From positions 1 to 64,000 of IMG/VR virus record IMGVR_UViG_3300043775_001834: DNA of 64,000 bases. One strand, given 5' to 3'. Within the stretch, counting starts at the first letter, position 1. Each line of letters opens with the position of its first letter. This DNA is from a virus. Shown here in pieces: positions 1,859 to 10,484 of the stretch. The position numbers and the translations under genes are program-made. The notes under the pieces are model-generated. The model was not told the DNA's origin and made no database searches. It saw only the letters and a list, made by a program, of their open reading frames with translations.

Positions 1859-2464
1859 ATGACTACAATAGGAATTGATTTCTCCATAAACTCTACTGCA
1901 GTAGCAATAAATAAAGATGGTAAACTTACTATCTTTTCGTTCGTTCCTAATTATCGTTCTGAACTTGCCGGATTTAAAATTCATAAAGCCTTATCTGATA
2001 TGATTAGTGTTATTTCTTACGAAAAAGGAGGTAACACTAAAGACGCGTTAGCCGATCAAAGAATAAAACTACAAAATGCTGACAATCTATCAGATCAAAT
2101 AATTGAAGCAATAAAACCTCACATAACAGAAAATCCAGAAATAAGAATCGAAGGATTCTCTTTCGGATCTAAAGGAAATTCATTTATCGATTTGGTATCA
2201 TTCAATACTTTCCTGAAAGTTAAGATTATTCAATCTTATGGCCATTGCATAGATGTGGTGCCACCAAAGTCTCTAAAGAAAATATACACCGGAAACGGAA
2301 ACGCTTCAAAATGTGATATGTTGCGTAAGTTCTTGGAAGTAAAAGACACTCCTTTCAAATTAAGACTTGTAGAATTAGGACTTGATCGAGCAGAGGAATT
2401 TACTCTACCAAAACCAATCGACGACATCATAGATTCAATTGCTTTGTCTTGGGTTTCACTATAA
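1859..2464 (+). CDS. RuvC-like Holliday junction resolvase
   Basis: IGIDFSINSTA, IRIEGFSFG, PPKSLKKIYTGNGNASK, DDIIDSIAL catalytic motifs. Confidence 0.85.
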   Translation: MTTIGIDFSINSTAVAINKDGKLTIFSFVPNYRSELAGFKIHKALSDMISVISYEKGGNTKDALADQRIKLQNADNLSDQIIEAIKPHITENPEIRIEGFSFGSKGNSFIDLVSFNTFLKVKIIQSYGHCIDVVPPKSLKKIYTGNGNASKCDMLRKFLEVKDTPFKLRLVELGLDRAEEFTLPKPIDDIIDSIALSWVSL

Positions 2465-2468
2465 CAAG

Positions 2469-2569
2469 CAAACCTTGGGTTTCCCTTGGCTTTGCCTCGG
2501 AATAAACTTCTTCAATTTCCTTGAATACAAGTAATCATTATATGACTTTAAGGCCTGTACTGTTTCATA
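2469..2569 (-). repeat. Copy A of a ~105-bp non-coding element (promoter plus CCRAGG repeats), inverted relative to copy B at 59482-59592
   Basis: Reverse complement aligns with copy B: TATGAAAC-N17-CATATAA-YGATTACTTGKATTCRAGGAAA...TTCCGAGG...GCCAAGG...CCRAGGTTTG. Confidence 0.85.
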
Positions 2570-4447: not shown

Positions 4448-5530
4448 ATGGAATTAACAAAACAAAAACAAGACGAAATAACGGCAAAGGTTCAGAAAAT
4501 ACTCCTTAATAATTTTTCTGGTCCTAAATCTTCTATTAAAATAAATAGAGATCGAATCAATTTTGCATGTCCTTATTGTGGTGATGGTTCGGATATCCAT
4601 AAAAAGCGAGGAAATATCTATTGGAAATCGCTTTCCTTTCATTGTTATAATGGCGGTTGTCAAAAGCGTCATGCTAATGTCGTAGAATTTCTTAGAGACT
4701 TTGACCAATCAGTTACTAATAAAGACGATTTGATGTTCTTTCTTGATTATATTCGAGAAAATCAAGTAATCACACCTACAAAAGATTACATGGAACTTAC
4801 GGTCTTTGAAAATCTTAAAGAATATTCTATACCATTAGAATTAATTAAGAAAAAACTTAATTTAGTATCACCGAAAGATAATTTCAAAATTGAAAGATAT
4901 CTTAAAGGCAGATTTCTGCATAATAAACTAGAATATTTCTTATACGATCCTAAAGAAGAACAACTTTATATTTTCAATCTTACACCTGACAAACAACATA
5001 CTTTCGGTTGGCAGATTCGTAATTTTAAACCTAAACGAGAAAAATACGTAAGTTACAATATCGAAAAAATCAATCTATTGATATTAGACCGAGAATTAAA
5101 AATGCCAAATGACGAAGCAATCAGAATGAATACCCTAAGCATTTATTTTAATATTGCCCTTGTAGATTTTATGAAACCTGTTACAATTTTTGAAGGACCT
5201 ATCGATTCGATGTTATGTCCTAATTCTGTGTCTATTTCAGGATTAGATAAACCAACCGATATGTTCGATGAAATTCCAACAGTTAGATATTTATTTGACA
5301 ATGACCATGTAGGTCGTCGAAAAATGGAAGAAAAACTAAAACGAAGAAAAACTGTTTTTATGTGGAATAAGATAGTAAGAGACTTTAAAGTTCAACCTAG
5401 ATTAGCCGACATGAAAGAAGTTAAAGATTTTAACGACTTAATAAAGTACAGCTGGTTACAGAAAAACGATGCAGCAAGAAAATACAACGAATATTTTACG
5501 TCAAACCCTTTGGATATTAGATCAGTGTAA
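4448..5530 (+). CDS. gp61: DNA primase (T4 gp61-like)
   Basis: Zn finger NFACPYCGD...FHCYN; TOPRIM IFEGPIDS, FDND, KDFND. Confidence 0.9.
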   Translation: MELTKQKQDEITAKVQKILLNNFSGPKSSIKINRDRINFACPYCGDGSDIHKKRGNIYWKSLSFHCYNGGCQKRHANVVEFLRDFDQSVTNKDDLMFFLDYIRENQVITPTKDYMELTVFENLKEYSIPLELIKKKLNLVSPKDNFKIERYLKGRFLHNKLEYFLYDPKEEQLYIFNLTPDKQHTFGWQIRNFKPKREKYVSYNIEKINLLILDRELKMPNDEAIRMNTLSIYFNIALVDFMKPVTIFEGPIDSMLCPNSVSISGLDKPTDMFDEIPTVRYLFDNDHVGRRKMEEKLKRRKTVFMWNKIVRDFKVQPRLADMKEVKDFNDLIKYSWLQKNDAARKYNEYFTSNPLDIRSV

Positions 5531-5531
5531 A

Positions 5532-5744
5532 GTGGAAGAAGAACTTGATAAATTTGATAAACGAGTTGCCGATAGTAAAGGTAGCTTTAAATTGATAGTT
5601 GATTTTAATCAACTAGAAGTGGAATTCAAGGGAAAACAAATTGACATTGGTAGCATAAAATATAAAAAGAAAGAAAAACCTAAGACCAAGGAGGTAATAA
5701 ACTTTCGTAAAAAGAAATCAAAAAATTCTAGCGACTTATTCTAA
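5532..5744 (+). CDS. Small basic hypothetical protein (likely GTG start 5532)
   Basis: Fills gap between primase and uvsY; stop overlaps next ATG. Confidence 0.5.
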   Translation: MEEELDKFDKRVADSKGSFKLIVDFNQLEVEFKGKQIDIGSIKYKKKEKPKTKEVINFRKKKSKNSSDLF

Positions 5745-6190
5745 TGACAGACGAAGAACAAAAGGTATCTGACCTCGAAACGGCATTAGAAACTGAGAGA
5801 GGTGAATACGCTAGAAAGATTAGCGAAATCATTAAGATGATATACAAAATAGATCGAGTTGCAGAAGCTCAGGTCTTGATGTTGTCGTTTAGGCATATGA
5901 TGGTTGAGAAATTAGCCAAATATCGATCTGCGATATATAACAAGAAATCAAATGATGCAAACTTTAGAAAGCTTAGATATGAGTATTATAAGACTGCACA
6001 TAACATAAAATTAGACTATAAAGAAATAAACGACTTTATAAATTCTGATATGTCTTTAAGGATTAGACAAACTAGCCTTTTAGAAAATCAATTGACGTTC
6101 TATACACAATGTATTGAAACGTTAGATCGAATGGGGTATTCTATAAAAAATGTAGTTTCAATCGCTGAAATGAATCATAGAAACTCATAG
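5744..6190 (+). CDS. uvsY: Recombination mediator UvsY-like
   Basis: Helical, RYEYY...FINSD...FYTQCIETLDRMGYSIKN pattern; adjacent to uvsW. Confidence 0.7.
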   Translation: MTDEEQKVSDLETALETERGEYARKISEIIKMIYKIDRVAEAQVLMLSFRHMMVEKLAKYRSAIYNKKSNDANFRKLRYEYYKTAHNIKLDYKEINDFINSDMSLRIRQTSLLENQLTFYTQCIETLDRMGYSIKNVVSIAEMNHRNS

Positions 6191-6207
6191 AAAATAAAAT
6201 TTAACAT

Positions 6208-7200
6208 ATGCAGTGGGATCTAACGCATAATGACAAACTTTTAACTCTGACATCAGCCTCAGAAATAGAAATGGAGCAAATAAAGCTTTCATTTACTAGA
6301 GAAGCGGCTAATGCCAAATGGGATCCTCGAGTTAAAAAGGGATGGTGGGATGGTAAAATAAGCTACTTTAAAGGTGGTCGATATTTGCCTTCAGGCCTTT
6401 GGAATGAAGTCGTGAATGTTGGTAAACAATATAATTTTGAAGTAGGTATCAATGGAATTGAACGTAAATTCGATGCAGACATAAACAAAGAAGATTTTAC
6501 TGAATGGGTAAATCTTAAATTTGCTAATTCAGCTAGAAAGCCTAGAGATTATCAAATAGAAACTGCATTTCAAATCATCAAATACAAGAGCTGTTTGGCA
6601 GAATTAGCTACATCGGCAGGTAAGACATTGATTATTTTCATGGTAATTTCTTTTATGTTAGAAACTAGAAAGAGCCATAAAGTGCTAATGATCGTACCTA
6701 CGGTTGATTTAGTTGTTCAATCATCCGAAGACTTTTATGAATATAATACCGATTCGGTTAATATGAAACTACAAATACAACAAATATTTGCAGGATCTGT
6801 TATTAGAGATGGTGCTAATATTGTTGTAGGTACTTACCAATCTCTAGTTAAAAAAGACAAAGAATATTTTGATTCATTTGATACGGTTTTAGTTGACGAA
6901 TGTTTGCATCCGGATACTTTAATTTCTATGGCAGATGGAACTTCGAAAAAAATAACAGATGTTAAAGGTGGAGATTTAGTATTAACTACAAACGATAATA
7001 CTTTAGAAAAGGAAGCTAGAGTGGTCGATTTCGTTTATCATAATCTATCTAAAAATAATCAAATGTTTGAATTAGAGATGGAAGATGGAACCGTCTTGAG
7101 AGTAACTGGTAATCATAAAGTCAAATTAACTACAGGGAAATATAAAAGAGTTGATGAATTGACTTTGGATGACGAAATTTTAGAAAATAGATACATTTAA
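6208..7200 (+). CDS. uvsW: UvsW SF2 helicase N-terminal half fused to split-intein N-part (6901-7197)
   Basis: WDGKI, PRDYQ, ATSAGKT, IVPT, VGTYQS, VLVDE then CLHPDTLISMADG and VTGNHKV intein blocks A/B. Confidence 0.9.
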   Translation: MQWDLTHNDKLLTLTSASEIEMEQIKLSFTREAANAKWDPRVKKGWWDGKISYFKGGRYLPSGLWNEVVNVGKQYNFEVGINGIERKFDADINKEDFTEWVNLKFANSARKPRDYQIETAFQIIKYKSCLAELATSAGKTLIIFMVISFMLETRKSHKVLMIVPTVDLVVQSSEDFYEYNTDSVNMKLQIQQIFAGSVIRDGANIVVGTYQSLVKKDKEYFDSFDTVLVDECLHPDTLISMADGTSKKITDVKGGDLVLTTNDNTLEKEARVVDFVYHNLSKNNQMFELEMEDGTVLRVTGNHKVKLTTGKYKRVDELTLDDEILENRYI

Positions 7201-7203
7201 CCT

Positions 7204-7240
7204 TATGAGTTTAAATATATAAAATAAACAAACTCATATG
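7204..7240 (+). promoter_or_regulatory. Hairpin occluding the endonuclease start codon, with a late promoter (AATATATA 7214-7221) in its loop
   Basis: TATGAGTTT (7204-7212) pairs with AAACTCATA (7230-7238), which includes the A of ATG 7238. Confidence 0.65.
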
Positions 7241-8047
7241 ACGAAATCCGAAATTTATGAATATATTAATAAAAATAAGATGAAATTCTTAGGATCTAAT
7301 ATAGGCACATATGATGAGAAATTAGATAATTGGATAAGGTCTCAAGGATTTAAAATACCGGTATTTGGTTCACAAAATGTTTTCGATTATTTGACTGACG
7401 ATAAAGGTAAATTTTGTAACTGTGGAAAACCTAATAAGTTTGATACCTTTAGTCATGGTTATTCTAAATTTTGTTCGAAAGATTGTTTATATAAATGGAG
7501 GTCTGTTAATATGATTGGTGAAAAAAATAACATATACAAAGCAACACCAGAAACCCTAAAAGAAATGGGTAAAAAAAATAGCATACGTATAAAAAAATCT
7601 ATCGCTGAAGGAAAATTCACTCCATGTGTAACTAACTCGTGGGCAAAATCAAGATGCATTGTTGAAATTACTCAAGGAAATATTATTAATAAAATAAAAT
7701 GCAGATCTTCCTGGGATGCTTATTTCCAGATTAGAAATCCGGAATTATTATATGAAAGAATAAGAATTCCTTATGTTATAAAAAACGAATTACATAATTA
7801 CATAGTAGATTTTGTTGATATAAAAAATAAAATTATATATGAAATTAAACCTGAAGGTTTATGTGATTTAGAACTCAATCAAATAAAATTCAAAGCCGCT
7901 CTTGATTGGTGTGAAACTAATCAATACACCTTTAACATAATATCAAATGAATGGTTTGAAACTAATTATGATGAATCTTTATTAAAAGGCCAACCGGATG
8001 AATATAAAATAAAAAGATTATTAAAACAATTTAAAAATGAAAATTAA
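7238..8047 (+). mobile_element. Free-standing putative homing endonuclease (PD-(D/E)xK, TnsA/gp4-like C-terminal domain) between split-intein halves
   Basis: CNCG..FCSKDC Zn motif; RSSWD...YIVDF..IYEIKP nuclease motif; location inside fractured uvsW. Confidence 0.75.
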
Positions 8048-8981
8048 AAGTATAAAAAAAATAGATTATACTGGCGATGTTTATAATCTTCGAATAAAAT
8101 CAGAAGACGGTAAAAACCATAATTATTTTGCAAATGGCTTGAATGTTTCGAATTGTCATAAGGCAAAATCTCAATCGATCAAAACTATCTTAGAAAAATG
8201 TGAAAACGCTGATAGAAGATTTGGTCTTTCTGGTACAATTCCTAAAGAAGGATCTTTAGATAGATTGACTATTATGGCTTATACCGGACCTATAATTTCA
8301 TCTATTAGTGCAGATTTCTTAATTGAAAAGGGACATATCACTCCATGTGAAGTTTATGCAATAGAAATGGATTATGCACCACAAGAAGTAAAAGAAGGAT
8401 TTAAAGTTTTACATGCTAGATCTGAAGATGATAGAAAGAAATTGCTTAAACTTGAACAGGATTATGCAATACAATCAAATGCTAGGCTGCAATTTATTAC
8501 GGATATGATTTTAAAGAATCATAAAAACTCTCTTGTACTTTTCTTTAGAATCGAATACGGTAACAAAATCTATGATATGCTAAGACAGAAAACTGTAAGG
8601 AGAGTATTCTACATCGATGGTGGAACCGACAAAGATGTTCGTTCAAGTCATAAAGAAGGTCTCGAAGAAGGTGAAGGGAAAATTATGATTGCATCTTATG
8701 GTACATTCTCGACAGGTATCAATGTAACAAATATTCATACCATATATCTCACAGAATCATTCAAATCTGAGGTTATTATTCGTCAATCTATTGGTAGAGG
8801 ACTTAGAAAACATGAGGATAAAAAGAAGCTACTCATCATTGACTTTATAGATGATTTTAGAGTTGGACGATACAATAACTATCTATACAAACATGGTTTA
8901 GCTAGACAAGAAATCTATGACGATCAGAAGTTCCCTTTTCAAGTCAAGACCGTCGATGTAGGAAAGATATACAACACATAA
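8037..8981 (+). CDS. uvsW: Split-intein C-part (8037-8153) fused to UvsW C-terminal half
   Basis: MKIKSIKKIDYTGDVYNLRI...HNYFANGLNVSN|CHKAK restores DECH; GLSGT, ASYGTFSTGIN, QSIGRGLR helicase motifs. Confidence 0.9.
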   Translation: MKIKSIKKIDYTGDVYNLRIKSEDGKNHNYFANGLNVSNCHKAKSQSIKTILEKCENADRRFGLSGTIPKEGSLDRLTIMAYTGPIISSISADFLIEKGHITPCEVYAIEMDYAPQEVKEGFKVLHARSEDDRKKLLKLEQDYAIQSNARLQFITDMILKNHKNSLVLFFRIEYGNKIYDMLRQKTVRRVFYIDGGTDKDVRSSHKEGLEEGEGKIMIASYGTFSTGINVTNIHTIYLTESFKSEVIIRQSIGRGLRKHEDKKKLLIIDFIDDFRVGRYNNYLYKHGLARQEIYDDQKFPFQVKTVDVGKIYNT

Positions 8982-8988
8982 ACAATTA

Positions 8989-8996
8989 GATATATA
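8989..8996 (+). promoter_or_regulatory. Late promoter GATATATA
   Basis: Recurrent intergenic motif. Confidence 0.65.
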
Positions 8997-9017
8997 ATTA
9001 AAAAGTATCTAACTCTA

Positions 9018-9251
9018 ATGGCATTACTTAAATTTAAAGCCTTTTCTAAATCACTTAAGGAAGAAAAAATCCAAAAGGAATTAGACAAAAAGGCTTCTGA
9101 CTATAAAAAAATCTATTTAGAAAAACTTCAAACTTATGGAGTTACGGATGCTTCACATTTAAACGACGATCAGCTAGAAGAATTTTTAGAGAATATGAAG
9201 TCTTATCGAAATAAACCAACTATTCAATCAGAACCATCAGATATATTATAA
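9018..9251 (+). CDS. Small hypothetical protein (position of T4 uvsW.1; weak capsid-targeting-like leader)
   Basis: MALLKFKAFSKSLKEE; ORF after late promoter. Confidence 0.55.
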   Translation: MALLKFKAFSKSLKEEKIQKELDKKASDYKKIYLEKLQTYGVTDASHLNDDQLEEFLENMKSYRNKPTIQSEPSDIL

Positions 9252-10484
9252 ATGGCAGAAATTCAAACATTAAGAGATGTATTTCGTAAGGAAGGACTTC
9301 AATTTGTACATAAACTTTTCGATAATTTTGTAATAGTAAGCGAAAAGCTTAATGCGACTAGGTTTGCCTTCGAAAAAAATTCCGATGGGACTATCGAATT
9401 CTATCGTAAAGATGGGAAGATAACTGCTATCGAGAGAACTCTTAACCAAATATTTGAAGAGCCAATAAATTACATTCAAAGTCTTTCTCCTGAAATTATT
9501 AAAAAAATACCAGTAGGATATCGATATGGCTTTAGATATTTTCATTCAACTGAACCTATCTACATCAAATATGATAAACTTCCACTTAATGGTTTAACAC
9601 TTACCGACATCATAAAAATTGATGGAAATAAAAGTAAAGTTATCGATGATGTTGCAGTTCAAAATGGCATTGCTGATTTGCTTATGGTAGACAAACCACC
9701 AGTAATTTGGTATGGTAAACTAGACGACGTTCAGAAAACTAGATTAACGGATTATCTTAGAACTTCAGAGGAAAAACTACTAGAAAAATTTAAAACTACT
9801 TCGTTTACTAAATACTTTATTTCAATAGTTAATCCTTCGTTGAAGAAAACCGCCTTAAACGACGATATTGATAAACCAATTGACTCGATAATATTCAAAT
9901 TCATCGATGATTCTAATTCCGACATAGTATATGCAAAAGCGGTTGACCCTGTAATTCAACAAATAATTCGAACTAACGAAGAAGAAAGAGAACCTCAAGA
10001 TATGTATGGCATAATTTTGTCAGATATCGTTGAGTTCGTAAAAATCAACGGAATTAATAAGTATAAATTAGAAGATGGTTCATCTGACGAAAAATTCGTT
10101 AAGTTGATGTGTCTAATTTATAACGATTATATTAAAAAGAATGAATATAAATTTGAAGGTGTCGAATTAGATGCTCTTTCATTTACTAATATACCTAAAT
10201 TTGATTTGAATTCAGGTTTTATTCCTAATCTAGAAACTAGAGAATCAATTGCAAAATCTACAATAAATAAAAATTTATTTAAGATAATTGTTTCGTCGTT
10301 TTCTAAGCCTAAAAGAAAGCCAACCGGCACAATGACTCAATTGCTAATTGATGATTTAAAAACTCTTAGTGATAGGATAAAAACGAAAGTTGATATACTG
10401 AAACCTGTAACAAATGAAGGAATGATGACGTTCGAAGATTATTTAGCATTAAAGGAAGAAAAGACGAGAACGATCAAAGACTAA
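9252..10484 (+). CDS. RNA-ligase-like nucleotidyltransferase-fold protein (divergent)
   Basis: VSEKLNATRFAF resembles motif I (KxxG variant), FYRK, PPVIWYGKL, SIIFKF, YAKAVDP. Confidence 0.45.
   Translation: MAEIQTLRDVFRKEGLQFVHKLFDNFVIVSEKLNATRFAFEKNSDGTIEFYRKDGKITAIERTLNQIFEEPINYIQSLSPEIIKKIPVGYRYGFRYFHSTEPIYIKYDKLPLNGLTLTDIIKIDGNKSKVIDDVAVQNGIADLLMVDKPPVIWYGKLDDVQKTRLTDYLRTSEEKLLEKFKTTSFTKYFISIVNPSLKKTALNDDIDKPIDSIIFKFIDDSNSDIVYAKAVDPVIQQIIRTNEEEREPQDMYGIILSDIVEFVKINGINKYKLEDGSSDEKFVKLMCLIYNDYIKKNEYKFEGVELDALSFTNIPKFDLNSGFIPNLETRESIAKSTINKNLFKIIVSSFSKPKRKPTGTMTQLLIDDLKTLSDRIKTKVDILKPVTNEGMMTFEDYLALKEEKTRTIKD

Follow-up and report, generated by a model that had tools for sequence, protein, structure and literature searches.

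The gene for the helicase UvsW is interrupted, in a stretch of viral DNA of 64,000 nucleotides (positions 1 to 64,000 of the IMG/VR record IMGVR_UViG_3300043775_001834; hereafter the window, to which coordinates refer), by the two halves of an intein that flank a nuclease gene. We consider it very probable that this is a split intein and endonuclease cassette that fractures the uvsW gene of a large T4-related phage, with the cassette spreading by homing and the helicase being rebuilt by protein trans-splicing. An earlier reading of the sequence (the original prediction) had proposed just such a fracture at the DExH box by a split intein and a free-standing endonuclease. It is supported by the comparison of empty with occupied sites, the invariance of the splicing residues, the linkage of the residue after the intein (Cys+1) to the intein itself, purifying selection on all three parts of the cassette and alleles in which the intein is contiguous.

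Anatomy of the fractured uvsW gene and its insertion point

Three open reading frames (ORFs) make up the locus, on the same strand and in three different frames, with stops between them (Table 1; a slash in amino-acid or nucleotide strings marks the junction). The parts listed in the original prediction are all present: ORF1 ends in a 99-aa N-terminal intein half (IntN) with Cys at 6901 and the motif TGNH; ORF3 begins with a 39-aa C-terminal half (IntC) that closes with NVSN, followed by CHKAK, to give VSN/C; and the endonuclease gene between them overlaps ORF3 by 11 nt (8037-8047), so that the ATG of IntC lies inside the end of ORF2. On ORF1, Pfam recognizes the UvsW_N domain (PF21241; 29.4 bits against a cut-off of 25.3), then ResIII and DEAD domains, and then Hint from residue 232, at which the intein begins with the Cys1 codon 6901-6903 (32.6 bits, over the gathering cut-off of 29.7). 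The start of ORF3 gives a weak match to Intein_splicing (positions 122-153, E 0.009), with Helicase_C after it. Residues 20-233 of ORF1 align with residues 20-235 of T4 UvsW (PDB 1rif/2oca) and residues 38-308 of ORF3 with residues 232-502 (PDB 2oca, E 8e-36); since the two alignments abut, the exteins meet exactly at the DE/CH of motif II, and the superfamily 2 (SF2) helicase motifs, together with UvsW_N, are collinear with T4 UvsW across both halves. IntN also matches the DnaB mini-intein 4o1r. Two PHROG families cover the fractured gene, phrog_16259 matching the N-half with IntN and phrog_9690 matching IntC with the C-half; with a Hint match above cut-off and a family for each half with its intein piece, the features of the locus are far beyond chance. 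Nor is the arrangement an assembly artefact, because a copy identical at 99% over the whole of it (L005) was assembled from a separate metagenome.

Table 1. Coordinates of the uvsW locus and of related hairpins (window positions unless a locus handle is given)
Feature	Position	Strand	Length	Description
ORF1	6208-7200	+	330 aa	UvsW residues 1-231 and the 99-aa IntN; ends TAA
ORF2	7238-8047	+	269 aa	free-standing putative homing endonuclease gene; ends TAA
ORF3	8037-8981	+	314 aa	39-aa IntC and the remaining UvsW; ends TAA
uvsW N-extein	6208-6900	+	231 aa	residues 1-231; UvsW_N domain and helicase motifs I-II, ending VLVDE
IntN	6901-7200	+	99 aa	from Cys1 (CLHPDT...); block B TGNH; stop TAA 7198-7200
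Inverted repeat	7204-7240	+	9-bp arms	TATGAGTTT / AAACTCATA; 3' arm extends to the first base of the ORF2 ATG
IntC	8037-8153	+	39 aa	MKIK...VYNL...NHNYFANGLNVSN; terminal Asn, penultimate Ser
uvsW C-extein	8154-8981	+	275 aa and stop	+1 Cys (TGT) of CHKAK, then helicase motifs III-VI
TATAAATAAAATAAA hairpin	L030 ~1960-2000			upstream of nuclease gene
TATAAATAAAATAAA hairpin	L032 ~2470-2510			upstream of nuclease gene
TATAAATAAAATAAA hairpin	L089 ~2350-2385			upstream of nuclease gene

The insertion point is fixed by close relatives. A scan of IMG/VR with ORF1 returned, beside L005, three contigs (L006-L008) in which uvsW is uninterrupted, the intein-less alleles to which the original prediction had looked ahead; their DNA is 93% identical to the window upstream of the site and 85-88% downstream. 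Homology to them ends at 6900 in the window and restarts at 8154/8156, and the insert, 6901-8153, is 1253 nt long, no multiple of three. The cassette is thus polymorphic in its presence at one precise site among close relatives. The junction of the intein-less gene reads ...GTTGATGAA/ACTCAT... and that of the empty site in L008 ...GTTATTGTTGATGAA/ACTCATAAGGCG...; at the protein level the empty alleles have VIVDE-THKAK and the occupied allele VLVDE/CHKAK. Over about 505 aligned extein residues the window differs from the empty alleles at eight, and two of these, I228L and T232C, fall within four residues of the junction.

The second of these substitutions touches the chemistry expected of an intein. 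When 118 ORF3 homologues, 20 fractured and 98 intein-less, were scored at motif II, Cys+1 was found in all 20 of the fractured alleles as against five of the 98 intein-less ones, whose motif reads DETH in 76, DESH in nine, DEVH in eight and DECH in five. Linkage of Cys+1 to the intein as tight as this would be needed for the intein to work. It also alters one point of the original prediction, according to which splicing would restore VLVDE-CHKAK: the exteins do abut at DE/CH, but the spliced DECH box would differ from the DETH usual in the clade rather than restore it.

The features of a class-1 intein are in place, namely Cys1 in block A, TxxH in block B and the C-terminal Asn followed by Cys+1. 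Cys1 and TGNH are invariant across 34 distinct IntN homologues, as is the terminal Asn across the 56 distinct IntC-type sequences aligned. The penultimate His of block G, which is usual but not obligatory, is replaced by Ser in the window. The original prediction had remarked on this Ser, and rightly, but it is not peculiar to the present copy: among 65 loci scored, IntC ends in VSN in 59, in VAN in three, in AHN in two and in VKN in one, and because 59 of the 65 share it, the Ser is best read as a conserved trait of the lineage and not as decay. IntN carries a net charge of -5 and IntC of +3, a complementarity that has been described as a pattern of natural split inteins (PMC2677866). The G+C content is 30% in IntN, 26% in ORF2 and 25% in IntC, with 33% in the exteins.

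All parts of the cassette are maintained. In pairwise comparisons the ratio of nonsynonymous to synonymous substitution rates (dN/dS) is 0.05-0.31 for IntN, 0.02-0.17 for IntC and 0.08-0.25 for the nuclease; for the exteins it is 0.06-0.43 (pairs with unsaturated synonymous divergence, dS, drawn from many independent cassette-bearing lineages). Purifying selection constrains the intein halves and the nuclease as much as it does the exteins, and across about 65 loci there are no frameshifts or internal stops.

Natural variants of the locus connect the window's arrangement with simpler and more dispersed ones. First, a search with IntN only, which covered 1.8 billion representative proteins and gave mostly N-halves of about 330 aa, also turned up three UvsW proteins of 649-655 aa (P0262, P0279 and P0332), which have segments like IntN and IntC joined by a short linker into a contiguous mini-intein at the same site. 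The window's IntN and IntC would likewise form a complete HINT domain between them, with the break in the canonical endonuclease-insertion loop, because the contiguous intein of P0262 aligns end to end with the mini-intein 4o1r (residues 8-142 of 142, E 1.8e-6). The same mini-intein also has a whole-length match (residues 9-146, E 2.5e-6) to the 150-156 aa chains of PDB 6y75 and 6tmm, which are deposited as 'NAD(P)(+)--arginine ADP-ribosyltransferase' and may be the excised intein of that enzyme. Second, three metagenomic proteins of 592-746 aa (P0257, P0292 and P0376) have the UvsW N-half and IntN fused in frame to a TnsA-like nuclease; from their architecture we read these fusions as an intermediate between a bifunctional intein and the three-ORF fractured gene. 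Third, the nuclease gene is missing between the uvsW halves in three loci. The halves lie 4.3 kb apart in L013 (4973-8963) and L015 (5003-8966), where the cargo includes ORFs of 202 and 693 aa with tail-fibre-like PHROG matches, and 1.5 kb apart in L014 (4973-6428), which has three small ORFs without matches. In these three the fracture has become an ordinary site of gene insertion. Halves so far apart, without a nuclease and with intact splicing residues, would be hard to explain without trans-splicing.

The nuclease and the spread of the cassette

ORF2 matches the PHROG family phrog_15427, 'endonuclease', at 1.8e-25, and 182 homologues are detectable. Pfam TnsA-like_N (PF08722) scores 25.2 bits on ORF2, just under its cut-off of 26.5, and is precomputed on many of the homologues. 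In a 35-sequence alignment (A1) the residues C60, C62, C79 and C83 are invariant, as are E173, D191, E202-x-K204 and an NSW/RSSW region, which gives an order of an N-terminal Cys4 zinc knuckle formed by the four cysteines, a helical region and a C-terminal TnsA-like PD-(D/E)xK domain. An AlphaFold (AF2) model of ORF2 has a predicted local distance difference test score (pLDDT) of 92. In a whole-library VIA search, the best structural match to residues 115-269 of this model was TnsA (1t0f_A; Z 9.9, 141 residues, root-mean-square deviation 4.0), followed by Vsr (Z 6.1) and I-Bth0305I (3r3p, Z 5.7); Foldseek alone gave no match at E <= 0.001. Pfam finds no GIY-YIG match in ORF2, and no sequence match to 3r3p is detectable. 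The EDxHD motif defines the Vsr-like homing endonucleases (PMC3239194); no His stands in any invariant or at least 90%-conserved column of the 35-sequence alignment, and because the family is without a conserved His it does not fit that motif. In fold and residues ORF2 is a TnsA-like PD-(D/E)xK enzyme, and not a GIY-YIG or EDxHD one. One further candidate appeared when the profile of the ORF2 family was compared with PDB sequences, namely I-CreI (E 0.06-1, over YIVDFVD...EIKP); we reject it as a chance match, the model having an alpha/beta nuclease fold with TnsA as its best match.

With TnsA, the endonuclease subunit of the Tn7 transposase (PDB 1t0f, 1f1z), ORF2 shares the fold and the pattern of acidic and Lys active-site residues; unlike TnsA, it has neither a transposon context nor TnsB/C partners, it adds the zinc knuckle and the helical N-terminal domain, and its family sits in split inteins or between the halves of essential phage genes. 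The resemblance to I-Bth0305I and the EDxHD enzymes lies in the association with inteins or introns and in an N-terminal DNA-binding region that precedes a C-terminal restriction-enzyme-like fold (PMC3239194), whereas E173, D191, E202 and K204 make up a canonical PD-(D/E)xK site and the nearest solved fold is TnsA. The family is likely to be an additional class of homing endonuclease.

Members of this nuclease family also occur away from uvsW. In Yersinia phage phiR1-RT one lies between the halves of the large terminase gene, with an atypically split intein, and others adjoin the terminase gene in T4-like phages of E. coli and Salmonella or occur in Campylobacter phages. To recur in this way at conserved sites of several essential genes is, on comparative grounds, the signature expected of a homing endonuclease. 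The phiR1-RT locus itself (g166-g168; L027:2028-4877) has the terminase fractured at ...IYIDE/CVSKDT..., with g167 as the nuclease and an IntN of only about 45 aa with a long C-piece.

When IMG/VR was scanned with a profile of the ORF2 family, 80 loci were returned. About 56 of them have IntN, nuclease and IntC inside uvsW; nine have the same cassette in a DinG/XPD-like helicase with an iron-sulphur (FeS) Cys cluster and Helicase_C_2, where the insertion site is again the VDE/CH of motif II; and in about ten the nuclease gene stands without a detectable intein. In the nuclease tree seven of the DinG-borne copies form one well-supported clade among clades borne by UvsW, with the copy of L071 apart, which implies that the cassette has jumped at least once from one helicase to another, non-orthologous one at the DExH-box sequence that they share. 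The L071 helicase gene (L071:1324-2478, IMGVR_UViG_3300014499_000031) has two inteins, the motif-II split intein and a second, contiguous one in the Walker A/P-loop of the DinG-like N-half (...NHN/SGKSY...).

The divergence of the cassette is likewise out of step with that of its hosts. In several pairs of loci dS is 2-5 times lower in the cassette than in the flanking exteins; between L057 and L059, for instance, it is 0.41 in IntN, 0.43 in the nuclease and 0.21 in IntC, against 2.2 and 1.1 in the exteins. Where UvsW is only 29-31% identical to that of the window, IntC is still 82-84% and the nuclease 50-53% identical.

Cultured phages have the cassette too. In a tblastn search of GenBank phages the three genes turned up in the same arrangement in Salmonella phage S16 (gp114, gp114.1 and gp115), its relatives STP4-a, SEA1 and CF-SP2, and Proteus phage PM2 (gp180-182); the records read 'DNA helicase / hypothetical protein / DNA helicase' with no intein noted, and the translated junctions of the cultured phages are ...MMNDE/CFDGDT... 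and ...ALAHN/CHLATG.... The Prevotella Lak megaphages carry the cassette when TAG is read as Gln, with an IntC that ends in ISN/CH. The recoding is illustrated by Lak-B4 (L022:3453-6750), whose nuclease ORF alone contains eight in-frame TAG codons; this nuclease is 413 aa long, its N-terminal region exceeding that of ORF2 by about 140 aa.

Proposed splicing, homing and expression of the cassette

The cassette (6901-8153), which consists of a class-1 intein broken in two at the usual endonuclease-insertion loop and of a separately translated nuclease, has inserted directly after the Glu codon of helicase motif II. Putting the observations together, we posit the following course of events. ORF1 and ORF3 would be translated separately, and the acidic IntN (-5) and basic IntC (+3) would associate into a complete HINT fold, in which Cys1 would start the N-S acyl shift and attack by Cys+1 would lead to the branched intermediate. 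The terminal Asn would then cyclise without the help of a penultimate His, and ligation of the exteins would give a UvsW of 506 residues and, judged by that number, about 58 kDa, in which motif II is a DECH box. The protein made from ORF2, for its part, would cut intein-less uvsW alleles of co-infecting relatives, and repair from the occupied allele would copy the cassette in, which amounts to homing.

Some features around the nuclease gene may bear on its expression. ORF1 and ORF2 are separated by a 37-nt spacer in which the inverted repeat of Table 1 lies, with an A/T-rich loop. A near-identical TATAAATAAAATAAA loop on stems that differ in sequence occurs just upstream of the nuclease start in the window, L030, L032 and L089, four examples only, which makes for weak statistics. 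This loop resembles the T4 late-promoter box, and the hairpin may be a conserved one that acts with a late promoter as a switch. A fuzzy search of all loci for loops like the late promoter was far too permissive in such AT-rich DNA and gave nothing usable, while a scan for sigma-70 promoters and terminators found no enrichment of the former and none of the latter. At the other end of the nuclease gene, most loci have the start of the IntC ORF overlapping its stop by 4 or 11 nt, an arrangement that suggests translational coupling of IntC to the nuclease.

Several points weigh against this account. Splicing and cleavage, for the window's cassette as for every member of the family, are read from sequence. 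In addition to the Ser at the penultimate position, the position in block F that is usually Asp is occupied by Asn (VYNL), as it is in at least 90% of members; substitutions of these kinds slow the C-terminal steps in some inteins. UvsW is not strictly essential in T4, uvsW mutants being viable, and the viability of S16 is for this reason no proof of splicing. The evidence for co-conversion at the junction is weak: nine of the 72 nt around it differ (12.5%), and 131 of the 1521 extein positions compared overall (8.6%), which is not significant, and only the clustering there of two of the eight amino-acid differences is suggestive. Finally, the hairpin predicted in the spacer (-7.9 kcal/mol, z -1.8) exceeds shuffled sequence in stability by no more than a small margin.

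The substitutions in blocks F and G would also fit intein halves that no longer splice and that hold the UvsW fragments together as a non-covalent dimerisation module. There is a precedent for such an outcome: in Aeromonas phage Aeh1 a homing endonuclease gene has split NrdA, whose fragments are reported to assemble through interaction domains without ligation (PMC3045599). We nevertheless regard it as improbable here: Cys1, the Thr and His of block B, the terminal Asn and Cys+1 are invariant though needless for association, Cys+1 is strictly tied to the intein in a clade that otherwise has Thr, a break within motif II would leave an extra domain of 138 residues in the ATPase active site, and the contiguous alleles (P0262 and others) must splice to function.

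A slightly fainter prospect still is that uvsW has been inactivated and its loss tolerated, with the cassette and the half-genes as decaying selfish DNA. The viability of T4 UvsW mutants and the polymorphism of the cassette among close relatives would agree with this, but both extein halves are intact ORFs that keep all the helicase motifs, the extein dN/dS of 0.06-0.43 and the absence of frameshifts and internal stops over the roughly 65 loci speak of constraint, and loci that have lost the nuclease gene still keep both halves. Lastly, although group I introns with endonuclease genes often interrupt phage genes, we give hardly any credence to a contiguous UvsW made by removal of a group I or II intron from the RNA, which the original prediction had named as the finding that would overturn it, or by ribosomal frameshifting or hopping: a scan of 6000-9200 with a threshold as lax as E 1 returned no Rfam intron family, or any other, the insert begins and ends with canonical intein blocks that are read in frame with the exteins, each of the three ORFs has a frame of its own and stops intervene, and some relatives have the halves 1.5-4.3 kb apart, with unrelated genes in between.

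Relation to known systems and neighbouring genes

Trans-splicing and homing, the reading we prefer, would place the locus among the fractured genes described by Dassa et al. (2009), as the original prediction had recognized; the layout is identical. In gp41-1, gp41-8, NrdJ-1, NrdA-2, IMPDH-1 and others, as in the window, an N-half with IntN, a free-standing endonuclease ORF and IntC with the C-half occupy one locus of phage DNA metabolism. The window's IntN of 99 aa and IntC of 39 aa fall within the respective ranges of 88-105 and 33-54, and the break at the canonical endonuclease-insertion loop, the complementary charges, the hairpin upstream of the endonuclease ORF and the overlaps of ORFs are shared as well. 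The differences lie in the host gene and site, UvsW motif II, in a nuclease that is neither GIY-YIG nor Vsr-like, and in the penultimate Ser. The hosts reported in that work comprise gp41, IMPDH, DnaE, NrdA, NrdJ, ligase, terminase and one unnamed protein, and the endonucleases of its fractured genes are GIY-YIG and Vsr-like only (PMC2677866).

The cassettes of S16 and PM2 have IntN, nuclease and IntC homologous to those of the window at the same DE/CH site of uvsW; they differ in sequence, with about 34% similarity over the whole of ORF1 and about 30% for the nuclease, and their IntC ends in AHN/C, with a penultimate His. The cyanobacterial DnaE split intein (Ssp/Npu), which does trans-splice, is likewise of class 1, with Cys1 and Cys+1 and a split in the same loop, and it resembles L013, L014 and L015 in having halves without an endonuclease and with other genes between them. 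Its halves, however, lie far apart in a cellular genome, whereas those of the window flank a phage endonuclease gene, and there is no close sequence relationship between the two.

As for novelty, the split-intein pair that the original prediction took to be new is so with respect to the searchable literature; its sequences were already in GenBank, in S16, STP4-a, PM2 and the Lak megaphages, and in two PHROG families. We found no paper on a UvsW intein in open-access text, and it may be described elsewhere. The UvsW motif-II site, the Ser-penultimate lineage, the TnsA-like partner and the spread to a second helicase all appear to be undescribed in the searchable open literature. A broader proposition, for and against which we find the case evenly balanced, is that the window samples a large undescribed family of split inteins in helicase motif II, partnered with a TnsA-like class of homing endonuclease, that would move between UvsW and a DinG/XPD-like FeS helicase by way of DExH-box DNA, splice without the penultimate His and retain every stage from the cis mini-intein to the dispersed, trans-spliced gene.

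In terms of significance, the locus adds a new host gene and a new insertion site, motif II of an SF2 helicase, to the short list of naturally split inteins, and its relatives offer dozens of natural variants that can be screened for fast or orthogonal trans-splicing in the context of Cys+1 and an Asp-Glu(-1) extein. The series of alleles is unusually complete for gene fracture, running from the empty site through the cis mini-intein, the fusion of IntN to the nuclease and the three-ORF fractured gene to nuclease-less halves kilobases apart; this pathway of gene fracture was proposed by Dassa et al. (2009; PMC2677866). With the unannotated cassette present in the cultured phages S16 and PM2, these points can all be tested directly at the bench.

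Around the fractured gene in the window, the neighbouring ORFs at 4448-5530 (360 aa), 5744-6190 (148 aa) and 9252-10484 (410 aa) have no Pfam match at E <= 0.001. The 148-aa ORF immediately precedes uvsW and is found in synteny in L013, L014 and L015 as well.

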